Shown piece after piece: positions 924 through 24,674 of a stretch of DNA of 64,000 nt (within the stretch, counting starts at the first letter, position 1; each line of letters opens with the position of its first letter). The notes beneath the pieces were generated by a model. That model was not told the DNA's origin, made no database searches, and saw nothing but the letters and a program-made list of their open reading frames with translations. A program made the position numbers and the translations under genes. This DNA is from a virus, in the IMG/VR virus record IMGVR_UViG_3300044940_000144, positions 11,958 through 75,957 of that record. One strand, given 5' to 3'.

Positions 924-1478
924 AGCGCCCCTTGCTTAGCTTGGCCTTGCGTTTTCGGAGCTCGGTTTGAGCCTGTCGAGAGGCGTACTGCGCCCAGTGC
1001 TGGGACGCAGTACAGGCCAAATAGCAGCGTTTTCCTTGCGTTTCCATCGCCCGGAATCGCCCGCCGTTTCGGCCGAGAGACTCGAACCCGCCCAGGTAAC
1101 GCTTTACCGGGTGGGGGGTAACTCCCCCGCTCGTCTCCCCTGCGCTCGCCTCGCGGCGACGCTCACGGCATGTGTGGCACCCGCCCGCTCTCTCCATTTT
1201 GCGGACGAGCCCACTCTGGGTTTTGTGCCAACTGGGGGTCGTCGCGATGGCCCCCACCGCCCCGGCGGTCCGTTGCGGCTTCCGGTATTGTCGCCCCGGA
1301 CGGCTATGGCACTCCCAGTATCGTTCCGCTGGGCACTACAGACGGCTGGCTGGGAGGAAAGGACGAGGCTACCGTCTAGGTCCGGCCTCCCATGAGCTTG
1401 CGCGTGACCCCCGTAATGCAGCCATACGGCCGAACCGTACCCGCCGGGCCTGTCACGACGCTCACTGTCATGCGCACC

Positions 1479-10944: not shown

Positions 10945-12136
10945 CGGTTCCCCCTTTCCTTTTTGACATCCTCCCCACGGCTAAGGCCCGGGGATTCCCG
11001 CCTCGGCCTGCACCCTTTCCTCGAAAAGGAGAAGGATGTCTTACGGCGTCAGCAGCGGCAGGGTTGAGACCAGCCCTGGCCAGAATCGCTCTGGCAGCGT
11101 TTCTGTCGCGGTCGCTCACCAGCCCGCAGGCATGGCAGACGAACTCGCGCTTTGCCAGTTCCAACCGCTGCTTGGCTCTCGCTCCACAGTTGGAACAGGT
11201 CATAGTCGTGTAGGCGGGCGGCACCAGCACCACCTTCCGGCCCGCCCGCTCGGCGTGTTCGATGAGGATGCGTTTCGCGACCCCGATGGCGGCGTCCTGA
11301 GCCTTGCGGGCCATCCTGGTCTTGGCGAGGAACGACGGCTTGAAGTCCTCGACGGCGAGCGCCCCGTGGTCGCGCACGACGGACACAGCCCACTTGCGGG
11401 CGGTGTCCTGTCGCTGTCGGACGACTTTCTTGGCAACTTTGGCCGCGTCCTGTTTCGCCTTGCGGTAGCCGACGGACCCCGCCTTGCCCCGCTCTGGCTT
11501 ACGGCGAGCCATCCGTCGCTGGTACTTGGCGAGCGCCTTCGCCGCTTTGCGGGCGTACTGCGGATGCGGAAGGTCGTAGGCGGGGTCGGTGGTGGTGGCG
11601 ATTGTCTTGACGCCCCAGTCGATGCCGATGGCGGCATCCGAATCGGCCATCGGTTCGTCGTTCCGACGGACGACGAAACTGGCGTACCAATGGCCGAGAG
11701 AGTCACGGTACACCCGCACACTGGTCGGTTCGGACGGCAGGTCGCGGGACCACACGACAGGGATGCTCAGCCCACCGGCCAGACGCAGACGCCCATCCTT
11801 GAGCGAGAAGCCGCAGCGCGTGTAGTTGAGACTTGGCATGGTCCTGCGGGAGGACTTGAACTTGCGCCGCCCCTTGCCTTCGGCTCGCTTGGCGCGGAAG
11901 TTCCTCAACTCCTGCTGTTGCACGACGCTGCTACCGGCGCGGAGCCATTCGTGCTCGCGCCGCCATGCGGTCAGGTCACTGTCGCGGACCCATGTGCCCG
12001 TGGTCCGGAGCATGGCGACGGACTGGTTCCACAGCCAGCGGGTGCGGTGCCATTCGGAGATGAGCGCTCGCTCCGCCTTCGCACCGGGGCGCAGACGGTA
12101 CTGGTAGCGCAAGACCGTCCCCACGTATTGGATCAT
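10925..12136 (-). CDS. tnpB: RNA-guided endonuclease TnpB
   Basis: YQYRLRP N-terminus; RuvC GIDWG, AVEDF and DRDRNAA; CSNC/CHAC zinc finger. Alternative leaderless GTG start at 12124. The ORF reads through the right end. Confidence 0.92.
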   Translation of the reverse strand: MIQYVGTVLRYQYRLRPGAKAERALISEWHRTRWLWNQSVAMLRTTGTWVRDSDLTAWRREHEWLRAGSSVVQQQELRNFRAKRAEGKGRRKFKSSRRTMPSLNYTRCGFSLKDGRLRLAGGLSIPVVWSRDLPSEPTSVRVYRDSLGHWYASFVVRRNDEPMADSDAAIGIDWGVKTIATTTDPAYDLPHPQYARKAAKALAKYQRRMARRKPERGKAGSVGYRKAKQDAAKVAKKVVRQRQDTARKWAVSVVRDHGALAVEDFKPSFLAKTRMARKAQDAAIGVAKRILIEHAERAGRKVVLVPPAYTTMTCSNCGARAKQRLELAKREFVCHACGLVSDRDRNAARAILARAGLNPAAADAVRHPSPFRGKGAGRGGNPRALAVGRMSKRKGGTDDDEQT

Positions 12137-12204
12137 ACCAGCGACGCGTGTAGCCCCGATTCCTTCCCATGCCTGAAGGCAGGGGCTTCCTCGGGGGTCA
12201 TCTG
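10963..12204 (-). mobile_element. IS200/IS605-family element, tnpB only (IS1341-like)
   Basis: Left-end hairpin GAAGCCCCTGCCTTCAGGCATGGG after TTTAC; right end GAATCCCC..CCTTAGCCGTGGGGAGGATGTCAA; no tnpA. Confidence 0.85.
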
Positions 12205-12214
12205 GTAAAGCAAG

Positions 12215-12296
12215 TGGGGGCCGAGGGAGTCGAACCCTCATGCCTTGCGGCGCCGGATTTTGAGTCCGGTGCGTATGCCAGTTCCGCCAGACCCCC
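12215..12296 (-). tRNA. tRNA-Leu(CAA), CCA not encoded
   Basis: Acceptor GGGGGTC/GGCCCCC, anticodon arm CCGGA-CTCAAAA-TCCGG, long variable arm, GAGGG-TTCGACT-CCCTC. Confidence 0.95.
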
Positions 12297-12304
12297 GGTG
12301 GCCC

Positions 12305-12595
12305 TTACAGGGCCAGTTGGTCGTTCAAGTAGACGCGTAGCTCTGTTAGCCTGCCATCCGAGTAGCCGAGCGCCAGGTCGTAGATCTCGGCGCCCACACC
12401 GGCTTCGTCCACCGTGATCGCCCCGTAGACGTGGCCGTTGTCATCGGCGCGGTAGGCGACCTCGACATCGTCCCAACCCCAGGTCTTGAGATTGGCGACG
12501 ACCTCCCCGTTGGACGCGATGCCGTTGAGAAGCTCGTCGCCCCGGTTGATCCCGATGGTGCGGACCAACTCGATGAGTTTGACGATCACATTCAT
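12305..12595 (-). CDS. hypothetical protein
   Basis: AGGGGGAACC before ATG 12595. Confidence 0.7.
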   Translation of the reverse strand: MNVIVKLIELVRTIGINRGDELLNGIASNGEVVANLKTWGWDDVEVAYRADDNGHVYGAITVDEAGVGAEIYDLALGYSDGRLTELRVYLNDQLAL

Positions 12596-12658
12596 CGCGG
12601 TTCCCCCTGTGGAGGGGGCTTGAGCCTCCATGCCCAAGCCCCCTCCAGCTCAGATGTC

Positions 12659-13201
12659 CTATGCCGTGGATTCTGCCAGTGCCGTGCGCATCGCTTTGAC
12701 GAAGCGACCATCGGAGGCGACGGACCGAGACCACTCTTTCAGAGTGGCGGTGCCATCGTCCTCACGGGACATCATCGCAGTGATCCCACGCACTTCGTCG
12801 CGGCTGGCCATCGTGATGCAGACCGCCTCGTCCTTCCAGGGCGAGTCACCGATGCTGCCGTACTGCTCGACGATGACCTGCCCGATGTCCTGTTCCGGGA
12901 CACCGGGGTATGCCGCTCGCACCTGGTCGTTGATCTGGACGAACCAGGACGACACGACCATGCCAAGGGCGATGGCCTTCGTGCCGTTGGCGAACTGCGG
13001 GATCAAGACGCGGCACAGGATCTCTTTGCCTTCCTGGCTGTTCATGAACTCCTGCGGGATCGGGAAAACGATGATCTTCATGTTCGAAGACACGACGAAC
13101 AGCACCGGGGCGATGTCATCGTCCCAGTCGGTGAACTGGCCGACGTTTTCCTCGACGCCCTTTTGGATGACCTTTTCCAGGTCGTCTAGCACGCTGGCCA
13201 T
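12659..13201 (-). CDS. hypothetical protein
   Basis: 180 aa ORF coupled to the upstream gene. Confidence 0.75.
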   Translation of the reverse strand: MASVLDDLEKVIQKGVEENVGQFTDWDDDIAPVLFVVSSNMKIIVFPIPQEFMNSQEGKEILCRVLIPQFANGTKAIALGMVVSSWFVQINDQVRAAYPGVPEQDIGQVIVEQYGSIGDSPWKDEAVCITMASRDEVRGITAMMSREDDGTATLKEWSRSVASDGRFVKAMRTALAESTA

Positions 13202-13204
13202 GGC

Positions 13205-13495
13205 CTAGAGCCTCTGGAGAAGCGTCTCGCCGTACTCGTCGACCGAGGCGAGGAACCGCTTTTCGCCGCCGACGATCGCAATGACGATCCAGGCCAGCCA
13301 CCAAACTCCGAACGTGATCAGGCCGATCACAAAGTGGAGCAGGTGGTTGACCCTGTGACCCTTCACCAGCACCGCGTCGTAGTCGTTCTGCGACTCGATG
13401 CGGGCTCCTTGGACGACCTGGGTTCTGATGACCCTGGAGAGCGCTTCCTTGCGCTGCCAAGCCGTAGCCTGCGGCCTTGGCGTGTCTGTGCTCAT
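13205..13495 (-). CDS. small membrane protein
   Basis: NHLLHFVIGLITFGVWWLAWI hydrophobic segment; shared start motif. Confidence 0.8.
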   Translation of the reverse strand: MSTDTPRPQATAWQRKEALSRVIRTQVVQGARIESQNDYDAVLVKGHRVNHLLHFVIGLITFGVWWLAWIVIAIVGGEKRFLASVDEYGETLLQRL

Positions 13496-13644
13496 GGGTG
13501 GTTCCCCCTTTATCGGTGTTCTCCAATGGCCTGGCATCCCCCGGCAGAAAGCCGGGTTATCGGTTCACGGTTCAACGGCCCGGCCAACGCCAAGCCTCCC
13601 CGCGCAGTCACGGCGTGCCCCGCCGCCATGCGAGAGCATAGCTA

Positions 13645-13691
13645 GTGCAGTGTAGTCCTAGTCCTCGTTCGCCTCCTCGGGAACGACGATC
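13645..13691. repeat. 47-bp direct repeat, copy 1
   Basis: 46/47 identical to 14664-14710; contains TACACT on the minus strand. Confidence 0.9.
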
Positions 13692-13695
13692 AATC

Positions 13696-13749
13696 GCGTT
13701 TCGTCTCTGCCGTGAGACTCATCAGGCGGGCGGCATCAGCCCGCGACGC
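13696..13749 (-). ncRNA. hammerhead ribozyme type III (canonical)
   Basis: GCGUC^GCGGGC-ugaugcc-GCCCGC CUGAUGA GUCUC-acggca-GAGAC GAAA CGC; loops complementary (UGCC/GGCA); predicted cut 13745/13744. Confidence 0.93.
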
Positions 13750-13776
13750 CGGGGGCACCGAAGTGCCCCCCGCCTT

Positions 13777-14148
13777 TTACCGGATGCCACTGACCACCCA
13801 GTCAAGCATGGCTTGGACCTGATAGTCCGGGACCAGGACCGACGCGGGCGCCGCCGACGGATTGCCGGGATCGTGGATCGTGACCAGAAGGACACGGCCC
13901 GGGTTGTCGCGGATCCACGCAAAGACCTCGGGATACTCCTTCTCCATGCTTTCTGGTGGCTGCACACTATCCGGAGCCGACAAGTCGATCTGAGTGATCT
14001 GAAGGCACTCAGACCCAAGCAGGTCTGAGATGACCGCCACCCGGGAGTCGTCATTGACTCCTTTCGACTCCCACAGCGTGGTGAGAACCAGACCGTTCTG
14101 ACCAGACGATGCGCGCTTTTCGCGCCGAGGACCGATTCGGAATCCCAT
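13777..14148 (-). CDS. hypothetical protein, distant paralog of 14161-14547
   Basis: Shared P....WI/VxxNP.R..L motif. Confidence 0.7.
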   Translation of the reverse strand: MGFRIGPRREKRASSGQNGLVLTTLWESKGVNDDSRVAVISDLLGSECLQITQIDLSAPDSVQPPESMEKEYPEVFAWIRDNPGRVLLVTIHDPGNPSAAPASVLVPDYQVQAMLDWVVSGIR

Positions 14149-14160
14149 GGATCAATCCTT

Positions 14161-14547
14161 TCATCCGGCCATGATCCAGCCGATCAGGTCCCCGAGCTTT
14201 CCGGTGACGGCATCTGCGTCCAGGAACTTGGCGGTGGAGTCCTCCAGGCGCTCGCCCTTGTGGACCCACAGGGCCGCCTCAAGCAGTTGCTTGATGTCCA
14301 GGCAGCAGACAACTTGCGTCCCGTCTCCGGCCTCGACCACCAGCATCGCCGTCCGGTTGGGGTTGGCCTTCACCCAATCGATCAGATCGGGGTGGTCGCT
14401 GATGATCTCCCGCGGAACCTGCTCGTCGTCGTCGATGCGCAGGCTGAACAGCCCCCACGAGAAGTCTCCCGTGACCTCAAGGCCGTGGGCCATGCGATCG
14501 TCGTCCGAGACCTGGGCCAGCAGCAGCGGTTTCGGTTCGTAGCTCAT
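14161..14547 (-). CDS. hypothetical protein
   Basis: AAAGGGGGAACC before ATG. Confidence 0.8.
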   Translation of the reverse strand: MSYEPKPLLLAQVSDDDRMAHGLEVTGDFSWGLFSLRIDDDEQVPREIISDHPDLIDWVKANPNRTAMLVVEAGDGTQVVCCLDIKQLLEAALWVHKGERLEDSTAKFLDADAVTGKLGDLIGWIMAG

Positions 14548-14580
14548 TGGTTCCCCCTTTCATCGGTGCGTGCACGAAAT

Positions 14581-14638
14581 GGCGTTTCGGCCCTCGATTA
14601 GGCCATCATTCAGGCCGGGGAGATACCCCGACGACGCC
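14581..14638 (-). ncRNA. hammerhead ribozyme type III with core insertions
   Basis: GGCGUC^GUCGGGG-uaucu-CCCCGGC CUGAAUGA U GGCC-uaaucgag-GGCC GAAA CGCC; predicted cut 14633/14632. Confidence 0.8.
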
Positions 14639-14663
14639 CCCGGGCGCCGGAGCGCCCGGGTTC

Positions 14664-14710
14664 GTGCAGTGTAGTCCTAGTCCTCGTTCGCCTCGTCGGG
14701 AACGACGATC
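14664..14710. repeat. 47-bp direct repeat, copy 2 (3' end of the AAA gene)
   Basis: Matches 13645-13691. Confidence 0.9.
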
Positions 14711-16218
14711 GAGCCGAACACGGTGTCGAAGCGGTCGCGCACCTGCGCGCCCTGAACCTGCGACTTGACCTGCCGGGTGACCAGCTCGCGCATGGCCAGG
14801 TCGATCGTCGGCAGACGCTCGCCCTCGCCAGCGTTCAGCATCAGCTGAAGCTGGCCGCGCAGGCCGTTGGCCGCGTTGACGAAGTCCTGCGTCGTCAGCA
14901 CGTCCGGGCGCCCGCCCGTCCGGGTGACCGCGTAGCGGACGGCCCGGTCGATCGCCTCCTTGCAGAAGGCGGGCGTGTAGCCTGACATGGCCGAGTAAAT
15001 CGCCTCGAAGTCGAGCTTTGGGGCGAGCATGTCGGCCGGTATGACCGAGCGGATCAGGTCGCAGACCCCGTCCAGGTCGAGCGCGCCGAAGTGGATGGCG
15101 GCGTCCAGACGTCCCGGACGCATCATCCCCTTGTGGATGCGGTCGGCGTGGTTGGTGGTCATGACGATCATCAGCTCGGTGCCCTTCGCGGTGATCCCGT
15201 CGAAGATGTCGAGCAGGCGGGTGACGTTGTCGGACTCCCCGTTCTGGGCGATCGTATCGACGTCCTCGAAGAACACGACGGCGGGCTGGTAGAGCCGGGC
15301 CGTCGACACCACCGTGTCCAGGTCGTCCTTGCCCGGACGGCAGTAGATAAAGGTCCAGCCCTCCTCGACCGCAACTTGCGCGGTCAGGAAGGCCGCTAGC
15401 GTCTTGCCGGTGCCGAAGTCGCCCTCCAGCAGGACGGCGCGCTTCAGCGGGACCTTCAGCTCGCGCAAGATGTCCGCGTGGCGCAGCGGGGTCCACACGT
15501 TGGCGGCCAGCTGCTCACGGACGTCTTGCGAGTAGATGACCCGGTCGGGGTCGACCCCGGTGAGGTCGATGAACTCCGGCTCGGTCTGCCCGTCGATGGC
15601 CGCGCCCTTGTAGATCGAGTTGGAGGCCAGCTCCTGCTCGACCAACTTGAACAGGCCCTCGACGTGGCCGCGGAACTTGCGCGGCGCGTCGATCACCAGC
15701 CGGAACAAGGGGCCGTAGACGTAGTCGTACTTCTCGGTCGTGTGCATCACGCCCTCGAAGATCGGCACCTTGATCTTGCCCCACGGAACCTGCTCGGTGG
15801 CGTCCACGCCGACCGAGATGGTCCGCAGCTCCGGCGGGTACTGCCCGAAGAACGAGGACTGCGCCTTCTGGTGCCCGGTCGTGCCGAAGACCCGCTTGAG
15901 GGCCTTCGACAGCGCTCGCGCGCCGTCCAGCGGCCGGTATCGGAAGATCCGGCTGAACCGGGTCTCCTCCTCCTGCTGCTCGATGTGCGACTCCAGGAAG
16001 TTGATGACCCCGCGAAGGTCGCCCCGCATCGTCTCGGGGAAGATGTACTTCTGCCCCTCGAAGTGCAGGTTGTCCTCGGTCACCAGCTGTCCGCCGAGCT
16101 TAGCAAGCGTGTCCAGCAGGTCACGCTCGATGCGCTTGGTGGACGTCGGCGTCCTGACGGTTTTCTTCGAGGACGCCGAGACGTCCTCCTCCGCGGTGGT
16201 GATCGTGTCGTCAGACAT
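14677..16218 (-). CDS. AAA+ ATPase
   Basis: GDFGTGKT, FFEDVD, TTN and RPGRLD. Confidence 0.9.
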   Translation of the reverse strand: MSDDTITTAEEDVSASSKKTVRTPTSTKRIERDLLDTLAKLGGQLVTEDNLHFEGQKYIFPETMRGDLRGVINFLESHIEQQEEETRFSRIFRYRPLDGARALSKALKRVFGTTGHQKAQSSFFGQYPPELRTISVGVDATEQVPWGKIKVPIFEGVMHTTEKYDYVYGPLFRLVIDAPRKFRGHVEGLFKLVEQELASNSIYKGAAIDGQTEPEFIDLTGVDPDRVIYSQDVREQLAANVWTPLRHADILRELKVPLKRAVLLEGDFGTGKTLAAFLTAQVAVEEGWTFIYCRPGKDDLDTVVSTARLYQPAVVFFEDVDTIAQNGESDNVTRLLDIFDGITAKGTELMIVMTTNHADRIHKGMMRPGRLDAAIHFGALDLDGVCDLIRSVIPADMLAPKLDFEAIYSAMSGYTPAFCKEAIDRAVRYAVTRTGGRPDVLTTQDFVNAANGLRGQLQLMLNAGEGERLPTIDLAMRELVTRQVKSQVQGAQVRDRFDTVFGSIVVPDEANED

Positions 16219-16255
16219 AGATTGTTCCCCCCTTTAGGGTGTCGTGTTTGCCCAG

Positions 16256-16342
16256 CCTGATGGCTGGTGAGAACCCCTGCCTTTCGCAGGAGCTCTCATC
16301 AACCACCGTCAGGGCATGGGGGTGGCTCAAGACCACCCCCAT
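16256..16342 (-). promoter_or_regulatory. two intergenic stem-loops (possible RNase III-type processing site)
   Basis: Long imperfect hairpin at 16256-16313 and a GC hairpin at 16316-16342. Confidence 0.55.
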
Positions 16343-16357
16343 ACACCCGATACAGCC

Positions 16358-16822
16358 CTAGCTGCTAAGCAGCGCTAGGGCGGCATCGACCAGCGCGATA
16401 GCCTGGTTCTCGCCGGTCAGGACATCGTCGTTGTACGCTTCCACCAGACCGCGGCCATCGCCATCGGCACGGACGAAGCCGGTGTCGATGATGGCTTGGC
16501 ACAGAGCGCGCTCGGCCTCCTTCACCGGGTCTGGCGTGGAGTCGTCGTCCATGTACGTCGCATTCGACGTATCGACTCCGGTCACCAGGCCGAGCATGCC
16601 CTCAAGGCATGCTGCGCAAAAGACATCGCCCGAGTCGGGCGTGACCTCCATCGGGTTGCGGACCGCGAACTCATGGTCCTCCCCCTCGAAGGAGCGCACG
16701 ATCAGGTAATCGTTCCTGGTCCAGGCGATCTGACTGGATTCGTACAGCTCACGAATGCGCTGGAGAATCTCCGGCGCAGATGCGTGTCGCACGCACCCGA
16801 CGATGTCGGTCGTGACGGTCAT
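16358..16822 (-). CDS. hypothetical protein
   Basis: Shared start motif; 154 aa. Confidence 0.8.
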   Translation of the reverse strand: MTVTTDIVGCVRHASAPEILQRIRELYESSQIAWTRNDYLIVRSFEGEDHEFAVRNPMEVTPDSGDVFCAACLEGMLGLVTGVDTSNATYMDDDSTPDPVKEAERALCQAIIDTGFVRADGDGRGLVEAYNDDVLTGENQAIALVDAALALLSS

Positions 16823-16893
16823 ATGTGGTTCCCCCTTGTGTGGGTTTTCGATGTCCAGCCCTTCGTTATGGGCTGGGCGGCCTAAGCCACTTT

Positions 16894-16961
16894 GGGCTAC
16901 CGCTTCCCGGACGTCGGTGACGTCCGGGATTCATGCCTGCCCAGGGCAATCGTCAGGCGGC
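16894..16961 (-). ncRNA. hammerhead-like type I element with a variant core
   Basis: GCCGC CUGACGA U UGCC-cugggca-GGCA U GAAU CCCGGACGUC..GACGUCCGGG AA GCGGU AGCCC; same scaffold as the three type I copies, with compensatory changes. Confidence 0.7.
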
Positions 16962-19229
16962 TTACCGCTGATGACGACTGACCAGATGCGCGACCGTCGC
17001 GCGCATGCCGTCCTCAGCGTTCGACACCTCACCGTCGGTAGCGGCGTCAACCACAGCGGCCTTGCCCGAGAGCACTGCCTCCATGTCGGTGTCGATGGAG
17101 TCCTGGCACAGCAGCCAGTAGACGTTCACCATCTCGGCCGTTTGACCGATCCGGTGAACCCGGTCCTCGGCCTGTCGCATGTCCTTGGGCGTCCAGCCCA
17201 GTTCCAGAAACGCGACGTGCGACGCCGCGTGCAGGGTGAACCCTGCCTGCCCGGCCATGAGGCTGACGACGATCAGCCGCGTGTCCGGGTCGTTCTGGAA
17301 CCGCTGCACGGACGCATCGTTGGCGTCGTTAGCGCCTCCGATGACCCGCACCGCGCCCGGGAAGGCCTTGTAGAGCGCCTCCTGGGCCTCGCGGTGGTGG
17401 GCGAACAGCACCAGCTTTTCATCGCTGGACTCCAGGAACTCCTTCGTCCACTCGATGGCGTCGCGCACCTTGCCTTTCGCCGCCAGGCGACGAAGGGCGG
17501 TGAGCCGCGCCAGTGCTTCCGCTTGCAGCACCCTGCCGGGGTCGTAGCCGTTGGCAAGCAGCCACGCCACGAAGTCACGTTCGGCAAGCTCGTATTCGGC
17601 CCGATTCGTCAGGTCGACGTCGATGACCGAACGTAGCTTGGGCGGCAGGTCAGGCATGACCTGAGCCTTCGTGCGCCGCACGTAGCAGGATGACCGGAGC
17701 CGCTGATTGAGCTCCTCAAGGTTCGCGGCACCGCCGTATGTCGTGCCCCACTTGCTGTAGATGGGCTCGCAATAGCGGTTCTTGAACTGCCTGGGGCCAC
17801 CGAACTCGGCGATCCGCCCCATCATCTTGAGAAGCGGGACAAGCTCCACCGGCCGGTTGACGACCGGGGTGCCCGTCAAAAGCAGGACGTTTTCGACCTG
17901 CTTGGAGAGCCACAAAAGCGCACGGGTGCGCTTTGCGTTCTCATTTTTGGCGTAGTGGGCCTCGTCCACGACGAGCATCTTGGGCTGGATCTTCGCAAGC
18001 GCTTCGATCCAGCCTGCGGGCTCGCGCGTCCGGGAGCCGGGCACGGCGTGGAGGTCTCCGAGGATGTCGTAGTTGACGATGACGACGTCCGCGTCAGCCA
18101 CCAAGCCGTAGTCCGGCTTTTTGCCCGCCAGAACGGCGATGTTCAGGCCGGGCATCCACTTGTTGATCTCGCGCTCCCAGTTCCGCTTCAGAGCGGCCGG
18201 GCACACGATGACCAACGGCGCGGCATCCAGATACCACGCCACGCCGAGAGCCTGGAGGGTTTTCCCCAGGCCCATCTCATCGGCGATGAGCACGCCGCCA
18301 GAGGCAAGCCTCTTGATGGCGTACGCGACCCCTGCCCGCTGAAAGCCGAACAGGGACTCGCCCTCGGGGCCGAAGCCGTCGAGGTCAACGACCGCATCAG
18401 TGGCCATGGATTCCTCGATCGAGGTCTCCCGGTCCGCCTGCTGATCGACGAACGAAATCGCCTCATTAGAGACGTCCCATCCGTGACGCAGGGCGTATGC
18501 GACAAGCTCCGGACCGTTCAGGGTGCTGACTTCCCAGATCCGGTTCACCTTGTTCCAGCGCCGCCCCTGCAGATTCCGAAGGAACGTAAGGTTCACTTCG
18601 AAGTCGGGGTGGCCCGGGGTCAGGTACACTGCGAAGGTCTTGCCGTCGCTGTCCAGATCAACCGCCGCAGGAACGATCTCATGCGGCGGCGGGGCCGACG
18701 CAATGTACTCGTCGGCCTTGTCGGTCAGCTTGAACGAGTGCTTCTTGGCGAACTCCGCGACTGCCGAAGCAGAACTCAGCGGAACGCGGTTGAAGCGCCC
18801 GTCCCAATGGCGACCTGGCAACGTCCGGACATCGGTAACGAGATCGGCGTCGTAGCGGAATGCGATGACGAACTCATCGCCTTCCACGTCGATCAGCTTG
18901 GACGACTGCAGAGCTTTTTCCCGAAGCACCTTGCGTCCCGTTGCCTGCATGCGCTCGCGCCCGTAGTAGGTGCTCGCGACCTGGCCCGGGGGCTCGATGG
19001 CATCAAGATTGATCCCGGCGTCGGACAGCTGACGACGGTAGTGGCGAAGCATGGAATATGCCTCCCACGTCTCCTCGTCCGACCACGTGCCCGGGTCGGA
19101 CGCTGCCAGACCGTGGCCGAACGAGGCGTCGGGCTTGGAGTACCCTTGCCCGTCCTCGGATTCGGCCCAGTCGCACCGTGACGCCAGGTAACTGGCGGCC
19201 CGATGCAGAACGGTCCTTGTATCCGTCAT
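16962..19229 (-). CDS. SNF2-family (SMARCAL1/HARP-like) helicase
   Basis: ADEMGLGKT, DEAH, LTGTP, QAEDRVHRIGQ; N-terminal GRHWDG/GRRWN repeats. Confidence 0.92.
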   Translation of the reverse strand: MTDTRTVLHRAASYLASRCDWAESEDGQGYSKPDASFGHGLAASDPGTWSDEETWEAYSMLRHYRRQLSDAGINLDAIEPPGQVASTYYGRERMQATGRKVLREKALQSSKLIDVEGDEFVIAFRYDADLVTDVRTLPGRHWDGRFNRVPLSSASAVAEFAKKHSFKLTDKADEYIASAPPPHEIVPAAVDLDSDGKTFAVYLTPGHPDFEVNLTFLRNLQGRRWNKVNRIWEVSTLNGPELVAYALRHGWDVSNEAISFVDQQADRETSIEESMATDAVVDLDGFGPEGESLFGFQRAGVAYAIKRLASGGVLIADEMGLGKTLQALGVAWYLDAAPLVIVCPAALKRNWEREINKWMPGLNIAVLAGKKPDYGLVADADVVIVNYDILGDLHAVPGSRTREPAGWIEALAKIQPKMLVVDEAHYAKNENAKRTRALLWLSKQVENVLLLTGTPVVNRPVELVPLLKMMGRIAEFGGPRQFKNRYCEPIYSKWGTTYGGAANLEELNQRLRSSCYVRRTKAQVMPDLPPKLRSVIDVDLTNRAEYELAERDFVAWLLANGYDPGRVLQAEALARLTALRRLAAKGKVRDAIEWTKEFLESSDEKLVLFAHHREAQEALYKAFPGAVRVIGGANDANDASVQRFQNDPDTRLIVVSLMAGQAGFTLHAASHVAFLELGWTPKDMRQAEDRVHRIGQTAEMVNVYWLLCQDSIDTDMEAVLSGKAAVVDAATDGEVSNAEDGMRATVAHLVSRHQR

Positions 19230-19259
19230 GGTCCCCCCTTGTTGTGGTGTACGGTAGGC

Positions 19260-19323
19260 GAGCTACCGCGACCTCCCTTTGCAGGGAGGTTTCGGCCTTG
19301 CTCAAGGGCCATCGTCAGGCGGC
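19260..19323 (-). ncRNA. hammerhead ribozyme type I with pseudoknot (B1)
   Basis: GCCGC CUGACGA U GGCC-cuugagcaa-GGCC GAAA CCUCCCU-gcaa-AGGGAGG UC^GCGGU AGCUC; predicted cut 19270/19269. Confidence 0.9.
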
Positions 19324-19341
19324 ATGTAGCTTGATTCCACT

Positions 19342-19560
19342 TCAAGAATCGTCGCCTTTCCTGAGGACGAGCCGCTGCCCCCGGCCGAGGCCGAGGGAGC
19401 ATTCGAAGTAGTCGAAGCACGCTTTGCACAGATACCCCCAGGAACCGCCAGTGGCGGGAATGCGGGCATCTGCGTATGCCTCGCCGTGGGCGGCGTCGAT
19501 GTCGCAGAACGGGATCCTCTCGACGAGGATCGTGTTCGTGGACTTGCCAGGCTCCGACAT
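19342..19560 (-). CDS. small Cys-containing phage protein
   Basis: A.ADA....GSWGYLCKACF...LGLGRGQ motif; shared start motif. Confidence 0.8.
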   Translation of the reverse strand: MSEPGKSTNTILVERIPFCDIDAAHGEAYADARIPATGGSWGYLCKACFDYFECSLGLGRGQRLVLRKGDDS

Positions 19561-19584
19561 GATTCCCCCTTTGGTGCGTTCTCC

Positions 19585-19647
19585 CGCCTCCGTGCGACTC
19601 GTCAGGCCCCGTCCTGGGGCGACGCCCCCCTAGGGGGGCGTTTCGTT
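19585..19647 (-). ncRNA. hammerhead ribozyme type II (A1)
   Basis: AAC GAAA CGCCCCCC-ua-GGGGGGCG UC^GCCCC-aggac-GGGGC CUGACGA GUCGCACGGAGGCG; predicted cut 19621/19620. Confidence 0.88.
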
Positions 19648-19654
19648 CTTGTGT

Positions 19655-20056
19655 CTAGTAGTCCGCAGGCAGCATGGCCGTGTAGAAACCGGCCTCGTTC
19701 TGGACGAACCACACCCGCTCCGACCGGTCGGGCAGCCAGGACGTCAGCAGATAGCCGTCTTGCTTGTCCTCGGTCATCACCGCCTTATCGGCGGTGACTC
19801 TCAAGACGAGCGACGCAAGCGCACGGCGCACCTGCTCCGGCATGTCCACGCCGACCGTTTTGTCGATGCACTTATCGATCTTGCCCATCAGGTGGGACGT
19901 CGCCCTGGTGACGACGCTCCGCGCCACCGGCCACGGAGCGTTTCGCAGGAACACGCCCCAATCGGTGCAGTTGATGAGCACGCCCTCGTCAAGGGCTACC
20001 TCGTCCGAGTAGAACGAATAGATGACGGGTATGTCATCGAACGGGTCGTCGGACAT
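19655..20056 (-). CDS. DUF6573-like hypothetical protein
   Basis: VIYSFY...ALDEGVL N-terminus and TAMLPADY C-terminus. Confidence 0.65.
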   Translation of the reverse strand: MSDDPFDDIPVIYSFYSDEVALDEGVLINCTDWGVFLRNAPWPVARSVVTRATSHLMGKIDKCIDKTVGVDMPEQVRRALASLVLRVTADKAVMTEDKQDGYLLTSWLPDRSERVWFVQNEAGFYTAMLPADY

Positions 20057-20105
20057 TGTTTGTCCCCCCTTTTTGGTTGTGTGCGTTCCCATAATGCAGT
20101 AGCGC

Positions 20106-20168
20106 GAGCTACCGCGACCCCCCGCCAGGGGGGGTTTCGGCCTTGCTCAAGGGCCATCGTCAGGCGGC
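20106..20168 (-). ncRNA. hammerhead ribozyme type I with pseudoknot (B2)
   Basis: Same core as B1 with a different stem III; predicted cut 20116/20115. Confidence 0.9.
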
Positions 20169-20172
20169 GTCG

Positions 20173-20442
20173 CTAAGACTCGTCCGATTGCCAGTACTCC
20201 CCGGAGTTGTGCTGGAAGACCCCCTCGGAGGTGTCAGGCACATACTCGCTCGGGTCCATCACCACGCGGGCCAGGACCTTGAAATCGCCGGAGATGTACC
20301 CGCGCTCCCGGGCCTTGCGAAGGCCCTTGAGCAGGTGCTCCACGGCGGCCTTGCCGTAGCCGTTGTGGACGTCGAAACCGTCGGCGTAGTCGCCGACGCG
20401 CTCGATGGTGACCGAGTAGCTGTACACGGTGTCGTCGCTCAC
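20173..20442 (-). CDS. hypothetical protein, paralog of 20547-20804
   Basis: GTG start after AAGGGGGGACC; SDDTVY...ARERGYISGD. Confidence 0.8.
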   Translation of the reverse strand: MSDDTVYSYSVTIERVGDYADGFDVHNGYGKAAVEHLLKGLRKARERGYISGDFKVLARVVMDPSEYVPDTSEGVFQHNSGEYWQSDES

Positions 20443-20475
20443 CCTTGGTCCCCCCTTGTGTGGTTTTTCGCTTTT

Positions 20476-20539
20476 CGCCTCCGTGCGACTCGTCAGGCCC
20501 CGTCCTGGGGCGACGCCCCCCCTAGGGAGGCGTTTCGTT
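20476..20539 (-). ncRNA. hammerhead ribozyme type II (A2)
   Basis: Same architecture as A1; predicted cut 20512/20511. Confidence 0.88.
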
Positions 20540-20546
20540 TCGCGGG

Positions 20547-20804
20547 CTACATCTTCATCCACCGGTAGCTGTCCTCGAACTGGCCCATCGCGGGCTCCAG
20601 GTAGTCGTCCGGGTCGGTGTACACCGCGCGGGACCGGACCCGGATGTCGCCAACGATGTAGCCACGGTCGCGGGCCTCTTGGAACTCCCGGAGGAGCTGC
20701 TCGGCCGCGCCCTTGGCAGTGCCGTCGTGGTGCTCGCGACCGTCCTGATCATCGCCGACCCGCACGACGTGCAGCAGGTAGCGGTAGACAGTGTCGTCGC
20801 TCAC
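20547..20804 (-). CDS. hypothetical protein, paralog of 20173-20442
   Basis: SDDTVY...ARDRGYIVGD. Confidence 0.8.
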   Translation of the reverse strand: MSDDTVYRYLLHVVRVGDDQDGREHHDGTAKGAAEQLLREFQEARDRGYIVGDIRVRSRAVYTDPDDYLEPAMGQFEDSYRWMKM

Positions 20805-20840
20805 GTTGGTTCCCCCTTCGTAGTGATGATGCAGTAGCGC

Positions 20841-20903
20841 GAGCTACCGCGACCCCCCGCCAGGGGGGGTTTCGGCCTTGCTCAAGGGCCATCGTCAGGC
20901 GGC
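20841..20903 (-). ncRNA. hammerhead ribozyme type I with pseudoknot (B3)
   Basis: Essentially identical to B2; predicted cut 20851/20850. Confidence 0.9.
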
Positions 20904-20905
20904 TT

Positions 20906-21364
20906 TTAGCGTCCGGAGCGCGCTCGGCGCCGATCCTCGTACTCGTCCACGGGGTGGCGAACGATGCGGCGCTCGTCGTCCAGGTCGTAGAGGCTGACCG
21001 GCGAGCACGCCGGGTGCCAGGTCTCGCCACCGCCGTAGGCGATGGTGTGGCCACTGGCGAACTGCTTACCGCAGGAGCGGCAGTGGCCGGGGTACCTCGC
21101 CGTTATCAGCTTGACCGGGCGGACCACGTTCTGGTCGGCCTCGCCAGCGGCGCGCACGAGCTCGCGCATCGCGGCCTCCAGGGCGGCGATGTGGCGCTTG
21201 TGCGAGGCAATCTCCTCAGCCTGACGCTCAATGACGTCGGCCATGTTGAAGATCACGTCGTCGAGCGACCTTACCTTCGCATCGACGTTGGCGAGCGCGC
21301 AGTCGACGGTGTCGAGCTTCTCAGCGAGCGACGCGACCGTCGGACGCACAACAGTAGTACCCAT
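20906..21364 (-). CDS. coiled-coil plus zinc-finger protein
   Basis: Heptad-rich N-terminus; ARYPGHCRSCG...WHPAC. Confidence 0.8.
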   Translation of the reverse strand: MGTTVVRPTVASLAEKLDTVDCALANVDAKVRSLDDVIFNMADVIERQAEEIASHKRHIAALEAAMRELVRAAGEADQNVVRPVKLITARYPGHCRSCGKQFASGHTIAYGGGETWHPACSPVSLYDLDDERRIVRHPVDEYEDRRRARSGR

Positions 21365-21391
21365 GGTTCCCCCTTGTGTGTTCCCGCTTCC

Positions 21392-21455
21392 CGCCTCCGT
21401 GCGACTCGTCAGGCCCCATCCTGGGGCGACGCCCCCAATAGAGGGGCGTTTCGTT
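21392..21455 (-). ncRNA. hammerhead ribozyme type II (A3)
   Basis: Core intact, stems I and III vary; predicted cut 21428/21427. Confidence 0.88.
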
Positions 21456-21461
21456 CGCGGG

Positions 21462-21695
21462 CTAGACGATTTTGGCGTCGTCCGGCGTGCGGCGGCGAAC
21501 CCAGACGTCGAACTGCTCGACTCCTGAGCAGTTACGGGCCTTCAGGCTGAAGCCGCTAGATGTGCCATCGCCGTAGTGAATCTTCGATAGCACGCGGCCG
21601 TCGGAGCACAGGACATAGGTCGTACTGACCCCGGATCCGTACTCGACCCGCCTACGGGCGACCTCAGTCGCGCCGCGAGCACTGATCTTCGCCAT
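21462..21695 (-). CDS. hypothetical protein
   Basis: Shared start motif; 77 aa. Confidence 0.8.
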   Translation of the reverse strand: MAKISARGATEVARRRVEYGSGVSTTYVLCSDGRVLSKIHYGDGTSSGFSLKARNCSGVEQFDVWVRRRTPDDAKIV

Positions 21696-21726
21696 CGTTC
21701 CCCCCTTGTAGTGCGTTCCCCATCAT

Positions 21727-21794
21727 CGCCTTCCGTGCGACTCATCAGGCCCCAATCCATAGGGCGACGCTCCCCTGACGGGGAGCGTTTCGTT
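21727..21794 (-). ncRNA. hammerhead ribozyme type II (A4)
   Basis: CUGAUGA core; stem III CGCUCCCC-guca-GGGGAGCG (covarying); predicted cut 21766/21765. Confidence 0.88.
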
Positions 21795-21800
21795 TAGGGA

Positions 21801-22679
21801 CTACTGACGCCGGAGCGTCTTGCGCGGCCCGCGCTTGGTCTGGACGACCTCGGGCTCGGCCTCGGCCTTCGCCTCCGGCTCGGCCTTCGCCTCCGGCTCG
21901 GTCCGGGCCCCGACGGGCTTGTTCTTGCCGTTGACCCCGACGGACACCTTGAGAGTGCCGGTGGGGTTCTCCGTCGCCGGAGCCTCGCTGACGGCCTCGG
22001 CCTTGTCCGCCGCGTGCTTCTCAGCGAACCCATCGATGACCTTCTGCAGGGCGGACTTCTCCTTGTCCAGCTCGCGAAGCTGGGACTGGTAGTCGTTCGC
22101 CTGCTGCTCGGTCTTCATGTGCTCGATGAGCGTTGACATCGCCGAGAACACGAAGATCACGTCGGACGACAGGCCGGGCATGACCCGCTCGACCGCCTGC
22201 GCGACGGCGTTGCGGAAGGGGTCGGTGACCTTCCGACGGCCGACCATGACGTCGACCTCGTACATGGCGTAGGCCATCACCATCATCCCGAACGCGAAGG
22301 CGTCGCGCGCCTTCGAGACGTGGGCGATCTTCTCCGACGCCGTCATCCGCGTCGGCCGCTGGAAGGCGCTCCCGCCGACGTGCTGGGTCAGGATCTCGAC
22401 CGCCGCCTTGAACTGGGTCGTGAGAATCTCCCGGTCCAGCTTCGGCATGTCGAGGATCGACCCGTCTTTGAACGGGTTCGCGGCCTCCTCGGCGATCGTC
22501 GCCACCACGTCGAGGAACTCGGCGAACTGGGCCGAGTTTTCGGTCGTGGTGTGCTCCGCGCCGCCGAAGACGTGCTCAATCACGTCGTCCTTGGTCATCT
22601 TGCCGATCGCGTCGAGAAGGTCGCCCTCCTCGGTGGGGATCAGGTCGACCTTGCCGGGACGCTTGTAGGACGTGCTCAT
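21801..22679 (-). CDS. hypothetical protein, first gene of the early operon
   Basis: 292 aa with a coiled coil and EAKAEP repeats; shared start motif. Confidence 0.85.
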   Translation of the reverse strand: MSTSYKRPGKVDLIPTEEGDLLDAIGKMTKDDVIEHVFGGAEHTTTENSAQFAEFLDVVATIAEEAANPFKDGSILDMPKLDREILTTQFKAAVEILTQHVGGSAFQRPTRMTASEKIAHVSKARDAFAFGMMVMAYAMYEVDVMVGRRKVTDPFRNAVAQAVERVMPGLSSDVIFVFSAMSTLIEHMKTEQQANDYQSQLRELDKEKSALQKVIDGFAEKHAADKAEAVSEAPATENPTGTLKVSVGVNGKNKPVGARTEPEAKAEPEAKAEAEPEVVQTKRGPRKTLRRQ

Positions 22680-22706
22680 GGGGTTCCCCCTTTTGGGTGT
22701 GTGTTT

Positions 22707-22772
22707 TGCCTCCGTGCGACTCGTCAGGCCCCGTCATAGGGCAACACCCCCCCGGCGGGGGGGTGTTTCGTT
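22707..22772 (-). ncRNA. hammerhead ribozyme type II (A5), GUU cleavage triplet
   Basis: GAAA CACCCCCCC..GGGGGGGUG UU^GCCC..GGGC CUGACGA G; predicted cut 22743/22742. Confidence 0.85.
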
Positions 22773-23156
22773 TGTGGACCGCCCCGAAGGACGTCCACAC
22801 ACACACACACACATAAAGGGTAGGGAACCGATATTTATCGCCTCACTGCACCCAATCCCGTCCGGGGACGGGCAGCGTGGCACGGACAGGGTCCAGTATG
22901 TACGCTGGAACCGAGTGTCGCCAGGGCAGGGGGTCCACAGGACTAACGCACGCGCACGCGTGCGTGACCCTGCATGCTGAGCCCCTCGCGAACGCGCGTC
23001 GCACGCGACGCGCGCGCCAACTTCGAGCCCTCCCTGACCTGCGACCGCCGCGCATAAGCACTCCGTGCGACGCGAGTCCAACTCGCCGCCCGCGCGACCC
23101 CGACGTTCGTGCCCGCGCGACCGCCGCAGCAACCGCGCGTCCGAAATGACACTTCC

Positions 23157-23183
23157 ATGCTAGCACCCCCCATCATGCAATGT

Positions 23184-23186
<3 letters not shown>
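23157..23186 (-). promoter_or_regulatory. strong sigma70-type promoter TTGACA-N18-(TG-c)TAGCAT
   Basis: Perfect -35 at 23181-23186; -10 at 23157-23162. Confidence 0.8.
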
Positions 23187-23599
<413 letters not shown>

Positions 23600-23614
23600 T
23601 TGCCGCCTGAGTGC

Positions 23615-23722
23615 CGGCTACCCCCCCCCGGGGGGGCCGCTACCGCCCCCCGGGGGGGCCGCTACCGCCCCCCGGGGGGGCTACCGCCACGAAGCCCCCC
23701 GCCGGGGAACCGGCGGCTACCG
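23615..23722. repeat. GCTACC repeats with C6-9/G7 palindromes
   Basis: GCTACC(G)CCCCCCGGGGGGG repeated about three times, plus further GCTACC copies. Confidence 0.85.
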
Positions 23723-24289
23723 CATGGGTGCCACCGAGCCCGTCCCGGTCTCCCAGGACAGCAAAAACACCTGGCAGTCGACCACGTCCACCGTGCGCGC
23801 GGACACGATGACGCGGGAGATTTCACGGCGCTTGATCCAACGCTTGGTGACGCTCATGCGGACGATCTGGACGTCGTCCTTCCAGGCGTGCTGATTGAGC
23901 GCGTCCATGACGAGCTTGGCGGCGTTGTCCAAGTCGGGCTTGGTCGCGTACGGATGAGGGAAGCGCTTACCGGACGCCGACAGCGCCCCGGACGACAGCG
24001 TATGCGACCCCGGACGCCGCAGGCAGACAGTGATATCGACCTCGATCGGCTTGTCCTGCCCCAAAAAACACGCCCCGGCGCGTCTCCAAGCCGTCTGGAT
24101 CATCCGTTCGGCGATCTTGGTCCGGTCGCTGGTGCGCGTGTACACGCGGCCGCTGCTGCTAATGCTGAACCGCGGCCGCTCCTTGGTCGGGGCGTAGCGG
24201 TTCGAGTAAGGGTCCTTGGTACCCGCGTTCAGCCCGCCTGGGCCGTGAATGGGGATATCGAACTGGAAGTCACTGACGAGTCTGGTCAT
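23717..24289 (-). CDS. rusA: RusA-family Holliday junction resolvase
   Basis: KERPRF, KPDLDNAAKLVMDALN, W.DD.QI. Confidence 0.9.
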   Translation of the reverse strand: MTRLVSDFQFDIPIHGPGGLNAGTKDPYSNRYAPTKERPRFSISSSGRVYTRTSDRTKIAERMIQTAWRRAGACFLGQDKPIEVDITVCLRRPGSHTLSSGALSASGKRFPHPYATKPDLDNAAKLVMDALNQHAWKDDVQIVRMSVTKRWIKRREISRVIVSARTVDVVDCQVFLLSWETGTGSVAPMR

Positions 24290-24674
24290 GGCTGGGTGGC
24301 TTCCACCTGTCGTCCTTATCCGGATGATCGCGCAGGATCCCGGCGATGGCCAAGGCGTGGAAAACCAAGTGCCCGTAGTGAGCCATGCCGGACTCCGGGT
24401 CGATGTCCTCGCCACGGGCGATCGCGGTCAGATGGCGAAACGCAGAGGCGACCGACAACGACACCGGGTAGCCCTTGCGCCAGTTCTGGGGCGTGTACTT
24501 GGAAGCCCCATACCCGTACACCCGTGCGACCTCGTCCATGAGGTCCCACGGGATCAGATGGTACGCCTCAGGCTTGGCGTCCTTCATAGCGCCCGTATCG
24601 GGATCGGTGTAGCGGATCTCGGCCAGCTGCTGCTGGGCCAGATCGGCGGCGTTGGTGATCTTGCGCACCGTCAA
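24270..24674 (-). CDS. DUF5664 dATP/dGTP diphosphohydrolase-like protein
   Basis: LIP...VARVYGYGASKY..NWRKG...RHL...GEDIDPESG..H. Confidence 0.85.
   Translation of the reverse strand: MTVRKITNAADLAQQQLAEIRYTDPDTGAMKDAKPEAYHLIPWDLMDEVARVYGYGASKYTPQNWRKGYPVSLSVASAFRHLTAIARGEDIDPESGMAHYGHLVFHALAIAGILRDHPDKDDRWKPPSHDQTRQ

Follow-up and report, generated by a model that had tools for sequence, protein, structure and literature searches.

Hammerhead ribozyme motifs of three topologies at the gene junctions of a putative viral operon

The record IMGVR_UViG_3300044940_000144 of an uncultivated phage (75,957 bp, with direct terminal repeats and rated complete in IMG/VR) carries on its minus strand a block of 12 consecutive genes (g1 to g12), along which 11 hammerhead ribozyme motifs are spread. 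All coordinates below refer to the stretch of 64,000 nt that was analysed (bases 11958–75957 of the record, hereafter the window), unless a genome position is named. Nine of the motifs have a canonical core and two are core variants; together they cover all three hammerhead topologies, and each of g1 to g7 has a canonical copy on both sides. Judged from sequence and predicted structure, it is likely that a long transcript of this block would cleave itself into mostly single-gene mRNAs with hairpin-capped ends, the ribozymes perhaps acting as stabilisers or insulators of the separated messages.

Detection of the hammerhead motifs

The whole genome was searched on both strands with a strict descriptor that specifies the core segments CUGANGA and GAAA, the A15.1–U16.1 pair, a nucleotide other than G at position 17 (H17) and three helices in any of the three topologies, and that permits one optional inserted base after A9. 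Nine matches were returned, all on the minus strand, all within 13696–22771 and all intergenic, against a mean of 0.06 (maximum 2) in 200 dinucleotide-preserving shuffles of the genome. The structural-gene half and the replication genes downstream of 13500 gave no match to this descriptor. Five of the canonical copies are type II, three are type I and one is type III; with the two core variants added, the order along the transcript is II, II, II, I, II, I, II, I, type I variant, type III variant, III. For 11 of 11 motifs, the minimum-free-energy (MFE) fold is the hammerhead three-way junction with the core unpaired.

An earlier reading of this DNA (the first-pass annotation) had already placed 11 hammerhead motifs of three topologies at these gene junctions and had described the CUGANGA/GAAA core as kept in all copies but two. 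The nine descriptor matches and the two variants lie where it put them, the nine canonical copies satisfy the strict core pattern, and its proposed cleavage sites coincide with the H17 positions assigned by the descriptor (given below for each copy), as does C14633 in the type III variant. Its account of the spacing holds for most of the block. Most motifs were said to start within about 20 nt of a stop codon, and eight of them, from the type II copy A4 through the type I variant, begin 1–17 nt past the upstream stop; the two type III motifs begin 27–38 nt past it, behind an extra hairpin, and the first motif, A5, is preceded by a leader rather than by a gene. Cleavage had been expected 40–90 nt ahead of the next start codon, and the distance found is 40–85 nt for all but the last motif, which would cut about 250 nt ahead.

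Two covariance models, neither of which contains anything from the window, gave an independent view of the same region. Model R1 was built from 61 distinct type I copies of other viral contigs, and model R2 from 80 distinct type II copies of other viral contigs, taken from 120 viral loci that a looser structural pattern had yielded. R1 recovered the three type I copies as well as the type I variant, R2 picked exactly the five type II copies (22.8–33.6 bits, E 3e-7 to 3e-4), and neither returned anything else of significance in the 64 kb. A search with the curated Rfam hammerhead models had been put forward as a check by the first-pass annotation. With permissive filters on 13000–23500 these models gave six sub-threshold matches, all on the minus strand: five to Hammerhead_II at 22711–22773, 21732–21795, 21396–21456, 20480–20540 and 19589–19648 (26.5–33.0 bits against a cut-off of 37), and one to Hammerhead_3 at 13693–13752 (36.1 bits and E 7e-5, the cut-off being 48.5). 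These were the only matches to the hammerhead clan in that interval, and the type I copies had none even with permissive filters. Rfam 15, with E values up to 1, likewise reported no hammerhead in other contigs that carry four or five plain type I copies with the extra U described below (L055, L047 and others in the range L006–L063), so the miss reflects the coverage of the models; this widespread extra-U class of phage type I hammerheads is a coverage gap in the curated Rfam 15 models. At the level of sequence and predicted fold, the nine canonical motifs are confirmed as belonging to the hammerhead ribozyme (clan CL00010); the two altered-core copies have the hammerhead fold but depart from the conserved core.

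Motif families and shared modules

The type II family comprises five copies on the minus strand, named A5 to A1 in the order of transcription. A5 (22719–22771) has a predicted cut after U22743, in a GUU triplet, and stems I/II/III of 5/2/10 bp; it scores 26.5 bits with Rfam Hammerhead_II and 22.8 bits (E 3e-4) with R2. In the other four the predicted cut follows a C: A4 (21740–21793; C21766; Rfam 32.2, R2 33.6 bits), A3 (21404–21454; C21428; 33.0 and 31.4 bits), A2 (20488–20538; C20512; 28.6 and 28.4 bits) and A1 (19597–19646; C19621; 31.4 and 32.6 bits). Aligned with one another, the five copies show pairing in 98.8% of cells, where sliding the partners leaves about 50%, and two compensatory pairs occur in stem III. 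The earlier statement that the stems covary is thus borne out for stem III of the type II family, while covariation among the copies within this genome is modest overall. In alignments of copies from other contigs, covariation is strong for type I and for type II as whole classes, the percentage paired being in part a product of construction as these alignments were chosen by a pairing descriptor. All five A copies also carry an invariant 13-nt tail, GUCGCACGGAGGC, which can fold on itself in four of the five (UCGC with GCGR) and closely resembles the closed stem II of the type III copy of the same genome. Exact 3'-tail patterns found no relative with this tail in viral contigs, and further tail patterns matched viral and metagenome contigs 60 and 120 times by chance, in no case within a type II hammerhead bearing the tail. 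Read on the plus strand, stem III and the GAAAC segment at 22743–22767 and at 19621–19642 form a G+C hairpin followed by a T-rich run, and a terminator scan flagged two type II copies as intrinsic terminators on that opposite strand; from their sequence, the type II ribozymes might also stop antisense transcription.

The type I family has three copies on the minus strand: B3 (20832–20905, descriptor match 20846–20903; predicted cut after C20851; R1 57.6 bits, E 2e-15), B2 (20097–20170, descriptor match 20111–20168; C20116; 57.0 bits) and B1 (19251–19325, descriptor match 19264–19324; C19270; 55.9 bits). In each of them, loop II can form a pseudoknot of 4–5 bp with the 3' tail (GAGC with GCUC). 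Over about 70 nt there is no difference between B3 and B2, while g4 and g5, the paralogous genes beside them, have diverged to 51% identity (E 6e-22), so the ribozymes have been conserved or homogenised far beyond the surrounding genes. A fourth, type I-like copy (16885–16963, minus strand; motif 16899–16961) departs from the canonical core: it reads GAAU...AA, so that a U15.1–A16.1 pair stands in place of A–U, and its stem II opens with a U–U pair (U10.1–U11.1). The predicted cut is after A16904, in a GAA triplet. Its pseudoknot is GGGC with GCCC, that is, both sides have changed and the pairing is kept; R1 matches it with 33.5 bits (E 4e-8), and its MFE fold is the three-way junction with a z-score of -3.45. 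The type I module (CUGACGA, an extra U, GGCC...GGCC and GAAAC) is present in at least 58 other IMG/VR contigs, many of which stem from few metagenome datasets. Among the 61 aligned type I copies from other phages, the three stems and the pseudoknot show covariation well above shuffled and slid controls, the pseudoknot is paired in 77.5%, and more than 90% have the extra U after A9.

Two type III motifs close the block, both on the minus strand. The canonical copy (13696–13749) has stems of 6/5/4 bp, a predicted cut after C13745, and a loop I whose UGCC is complementary to GGCA of loop II. The other (14581–14638; predicted cut after C14633) has the core CUGAAUGA, with an extra base beside A6/N7, and also an extra U before its GGCC...GGCC stem II; it was matched by neither Rfam, R1 nor R2. 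It is thus in this copy and in the type I variant at 16899–16961 that the canonical core fails. Modules are shared across the topologies: GUCKCACGG is found in the type II family as well as in the canonical type III motif, and U-GGCC...GGCC is common to the type I family and the type III variant. One conceivable account of this, to which we give only a small chance, is that recombination between neighbouring ribozymes yields circular permutations, and that the type II family is a new sub-architecture in which a hairpin closed on itself on the 3' side makes up stem II, with the chain break at the base of stem II (11.2/11.1) and not at its tip. If this were true, the ribozyme-plus-leader units would be portable, self-insulating cassettes shuffled by phages, and possibly substrates for RNA ligation.

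The type III motifs lie between the two copies of a 47-nt direct repeat (13645–13691 and 14664–14710), which are 98% identical and 1019 nt apart. The copy at 14664–14710 consists of the last codons of the ATPase gene g10 and its flank, and the pair encloses the type III variant and the type III hammerhead, each behind a hairpin, with two paralogous genes between them. From its sequence, the arrangement looks like the scar of a cassette gain. Upstream of the ATPase gene, the junction at 16219–16357 (minus strand) holds three strong hairpins (MFE -79.1 kcal/mol, z -6.61). Another ribozyme class was considered for it and rejected, there being no Rfam match with E up to 10, no hammerhead core and no R1 or R2 match. 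The junction could serve as a site for a host RNase, hold the remains of a ribozyme or represent an element that has not been described. A strong hairpin is also found at 12600–12655, just ahead of the ribosome-binding site of the gene at 12305–12594, at a junction without a ribozyme.

Promoter, leader and flanked genes

The first-pass annotation had the block headed by a promoter at 23157–23186, and a sigma-70-like site is indeed present there on the minus strand (TTGACA, a spacer of 18 nt and TAGCAT, with TG before the -10 element). It is the sole promoter-like site within 12000–24500, and in the same interval no intergenic terminator-like site was found on the transcribed strand; both results come from consensus scans. 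With one promoter-like site and no intergenic terminator on the sense strand, a single long transcript is therefore plausible. Genome-wide, a perfect -35 element together with at least 10 of 12 matches is seen at two sites only, each of them on the transcribed strand. The second, at genome position 1766 on the minus strand and outside the window (TTGACA-16-TAGGAT), may head another block read by the host polymerase.

Between promoter and A5 lies a leader of about 407 nt (22744–23150, minus strand) with no credible open reading frame (ORF), which the A5 cut would remove. It was considered as a structured RNA and dropped, its fold z-score being just -1.64. The leader holds an extra exact copy, the sixth, of the 11-nt A-family tail motif (23061–23071), and it ends in (UG)8 at about 22797–22812, which is complementary to ACACACAC just downstream of A5. 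By their complementarity, these flanks could lengthen the open stem II of A5 or mask the leader of the first gene until cleavage. Directly upstream of the promoter, a GCCA unit (plus strand) is repeated about 100 times over 394 bp (23198–23591), and after it a 22-nt G/C-palindromic unit occurs three times (23617–23681). This tract might space the late and early blocks apart, offer an array of protein-binding sites or act as an element in replication.

The 12 genes are all on the minus strand, as are nearly all credible genes of the genome when assessed by third-position G+C content (GC3), and those flanked by ribozymes are mostly small and of no assigned function. The first, g1 (21801–22679), is an ORF of 292 amino acids (aa) with GC3 of 0.95 and weak family matches. 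It is followed by g2 (21462–21695; 77 aa, no assigned function), g3 (20906–21364; 152 aa, a coiled-coil and then a Cys-rich C-terminus), the paralogues g4 (20547–20804; 85 aa) and g5 (20173–20442; 89 aa), g6 (19655–20065; 136 aa, no assigned function) and g7 (19342–19560; 72 aa, Cys-rich). The larger g8 (16962–19229; 755 aa) specifies a SNF2-family helicase (PF00176, 8.7e-40, plus Helicase_C) that is 30–35% identical to helicases of Arthrobacter and other phages. Next come g9 (16358–16822; 154 aa, DUF6197; PF19698, 1e-5), the AAA+ ATPase g10 (14677–16218; 513 aa; PF00004, 7.5e-13), and the distant paralogues g11 (14161–14547; 128 aa) and g12 (13777–14148; 123 aa), which match each other with E 7e-6. 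Downstream of the operon and on the same strand, a tRNA-Leu (CAA) with a long variable arm is found at 12214–12296, and further downstream there is an EGFOA RNA match at 1074–1225 (minus strand; 47.5 bits, above its cut-off).

A megablast of the region against 50,697 phage records gave no match, so that no close sequenced phage is seen at the DNA level, and the scan of named bacterial genomes found no protein-level relative and yielded no host assignment. The G+C content of the genome (64.6%), the DUF6197 protein and the Arthrobacter-phage-like helicase suggest an actinobacterial host, which is a guess.

Transcript processing, alternatives and known arrays

If the block is read as proposed, transcription from the promoter at 23186–23157 would give one minus-strand RNA from about 23150 down to at least 13700. 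Each junction hammerhead would fold as it is transcribed and cut 3' of position 17, giving mostly single-gene RNAs with 5'-OH and 2',3'-cyclic phosphate ends. At a type II junction, the 3' end of the upstream mRNA would keep the G+C-rich stem III hairpin with the 2',3'-cyclic phosphate, and the downstream mRNA would start with a 5'-OH and be headed by stem I, the core and the fixed tail. At a type I junction, the upstream RNA would retain nearly the whole ribozyme at its 3' end, and the downstream RNA would begin with no more than a short stretch able to form a hairpin. Each of g1 to g8 would then have a 3' hairpin and a standard 5' leader, 40–85 nt before a conserved purine-rich ribosome-binding site, and this set of leader and hairpin would be a natural insulator and stabiliser for cassette-like small genes, whatever lies upstream. 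In the two core variants, cleavage is probably slow or absent. The first-pass annotation likewise proposed that a polycistronic RNA, in its view an early one, is cut into single cistrons without proteins. The sense-strand hammerheads at successive junctions after one promoter-like site speak for such a cutting into cistrons, an explanation that had been put forward before (PMC3088659, PMC6765202). Triple arrays of prophages cleave as predicted in vitro, and for one of them cleavage was also seen inside E. coli cells (Perreault et al. 2011, PLoS Comput Biol 7:e1002031, PMC3088659). In cells of Desulfovibrio vulgaris, activity is known for three type II hammerheads that lie close to phage-like genes (PMC8782182). 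In a 2019 review, the processing of polycistronic RNA is still 'suggested', with further work needed (PMC6765202).

Several observations weigh against this account. At Rfam gathering scores no hammerhead is reported in the window, only a tRNA and the EGFOA RNA. The type I copies each carry one U too many, placed between A9 and G10.1. A base at this very place is reportedly present in a viroid hammerhead. As cited in PMC2632901, an extra nucleotide in the hammerhead core of a viroid is known from De la Pena and Flores (2001, J Biol Chem 276:34586). Stem II of the type II family is just 2 bp (AC with GU), and no loop I–tail pseudoknot of at least 4 bp is consistent across the five A copies, a contact that is critical for fast cleavage at physiological Mg2+ (Perreault 2011, PMC3088659); the invariant tail of this family weakens the case further. 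The two variants carry core changes tied to lowered activity: an insertion after A6 and U15.1–A16.1 are natural forms with low but measurable activity, and U10.1–U11.1 also occurs in nature (Perreault 2011, PMC3088659). The junction at 16219–16357 is the single one in the run that is free of hammerheads, and the g11/g12 junction is without a ribozyme. In the nearest protein-level relatives, two viral contigs with a 57%-identical ATPase, the junctions are tight and hammerheads are absent; this gene set can therefore do without the ribozymes, and the modules are a lineage-specific addition. Lastly, the stabilising or insulating purpose is one that we infer outright, as we do a single transcript and its cleavage in vivo.

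The absence of the modules from those relatives would also suit a reading in which they serve mainly as borders of exchangeable gene cassettes, driving recombination, duplication and shuffling, with cleavage secondary or a by-product. Near-identical repeats stand at successive junctions, the paralogues g4 and g5 sit between repeats, a cassette of two genes and two type III motifs lies inside the 47-nt repeat of the ATPase gene end, and two core-plus-stem II modules each occur in two topologies, as recombination between neighbours would give; nor are the genes flanked by such ribozymes constant (Perreault 2011, PMC3088659). This reading overlaps with transcript processing, but as the principal explanation it is unlikely: a repeat can serve recombination without a catalytic core, but nine copies have theirs intact, pairing and pseudoknot have been kept through compensatory changes, and unrelated phages keep the same hammerhead-to-start position, which points to selection on RNA function. 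It is rather improbable that cleavage is conditional or graded, with copies of different speed and with the amounts or timing of the products set by kinetics, Mg2+ or a bound factor. Both variant cores match natural low-activity forms, the type II family combines its invariant 13-nt tail with a minimal stem II, pseudoknotted type I copies stand beside type II copies without evident tertiary contact, and slow phage variants have been proposed to be regulated (Perreault 2011, PMC3088659). No ligand-binding or switch element and no conserved alternative fold was found in the motifs, however, and nothing distinguishes this idea from the simple decay of two copies.

The chemistry of hammerhead ends (5'-OH and 2',3'-cyclic phosphate) is that of the substrates of RtcB ligase, and a host enzyme of this type might join the single-gene RNAs into circular or spliced mRNAs. 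The predicted ends fit such an enzyme and g1 to g8 each lie between two ribozymes, but the idea is very improbable: circular or spliced products of prophage arrays were sought and none found (Perreault 2011, PMC3088659), and each predicted RNA would owe its two ends to ribozymes of different type, with no complementarity to unite them. It is scarcely credible that the motifs are not ribozymes at all, but G+C-rich hairpins that serve as terminators, attenuators or host RNase sites and fit the hammerhead pattern by chance. Scores below the Rfam thresholds, and the resemblance of two type II copies to intrinsic terminators on the opposite strand, would agree with this. Against it, three unrelated families in three topologies follow all core and helix rules where 0.06 matches are expected, independent models detect them with E values down to 2e-15, and on the sense strand no U-tract follows the hairpins.

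Hammerheads clustered around single prophage genes have been described and tested, with triple arrays in Clostridium scindens, Azorhizobium caulinodans and Agrobacterium tumefaciens (Perreault 2011, PMC3088659). The arrangement seen here shares with them sense-strand motifs of types I, II and III at phage gene junctions, beside small genes that are varied or unassigned, as well as putative pseudoknot contacts, the natural core variants (A6 insertion, U15.1–A16.1 and U10.1–U11.1) and the proposed role in processing phage transcripts to single-gene mRNAs. It differs from the triple arrays in having nine canonical and two variant copies, predicted from sequence, in 9.1 kb, and in combining all three topologies in one operon, where type II and type I families alternate. 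The first-pass annotation knew of no described case of such density and diversity, a claim that does not stand in view of the prophage clusters of 2011 and of other IMG/VR contigs. Among the few loci fetched, there were arrays as dense as this one or denser: eight type II hammerheads in 4.3 kb, eight in 3.5 kb, seven in 5.8 kb (each copy just upstream of a ribosome-binding site), and nine hammerheads across the two ends of one contig. Mixed arrays of type II and type III occur in three other viral contigs (L203, L238 and L105), and mixed topology is thus not unique to the window. An unrelated phage of 48.5% G+C has five type I copies in 2.2 kb, each 25–35 nt before a small gene.

Compared with Rfam RF02276 and the IMG/VR type II arrays, the A copies have the same order of elements (GAAA, stem III hairpin, H17, stem I hairpin, CUGANGA) and, as in those arrays, are placed just upstream of the ribosome-binding site. 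They differ in a stem II of 2 bp (AC with GU) where 4 bp (GGAC with GUCC) are usual, in that no loop I–tail pseudoknot was found, and in the presence of the tail GUCGCACGGAGGC. The B copies resemble the extra-U type I copies of IMG/VR in the core with its extra U, the 5-bp stem I, stem II and the pseudoknot of loop II with the 3' tail, which is GAGC with GCUC here and mostly GGC with GCC there. The one type I carrier phage that was fully compared is unrelated and has a G+C content of 48.5%, unlike the 65% found here. Kinship to G001, the phage whose type I copies look most like those of the present virus, was rejected because the two share no proteins. The block is a rich example of an arrangement described since 2011, not a new kind of system. 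Particular to the window are the three topologies in one operon sharing two core modules, the two alternating families, the variant whose pseudoknot survives a change on both sides, and the unusual type II family, in which a stem II of 2 bp goes with an invariant tail.

The early polycistronic mRNA of phage T7 is cut by host RNase III at double-stranded hairpins between cistrons, leaving hairpins at the 3' ends. By analogy, and with no family kinship implied, the operon would resemble this case in having one transcript cut between cistrons and 3' hairpins, and would differ in that no host protein but the RNA would do the cutting, with 5'-OH and cyclic-phosphate ends as the outcome. RiboJ-type synthetic ribozyme insulators, reportedly described by Lou and colleagues in Nat Biotechnol in 2012, offer another analogy: a hammerhead ahead of the ribosome-binding site strips off variable upstream RNA and makes expression independent of context. 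RiboJ is engineered, whereas an insulating role of the natural array is a supposition.

Arrays of at least seven hammerheads per operon are common in viral metagenomes, and the published accounts found treat such clusters briefly. The 9-kb operon is a convenient single template for testing the effect of an array on mRNA ends, stability and translation, with many comparisons packed into 9 kb: three topologies, alternating families, two core variants, and ribozyme-free junctions as internal controls.

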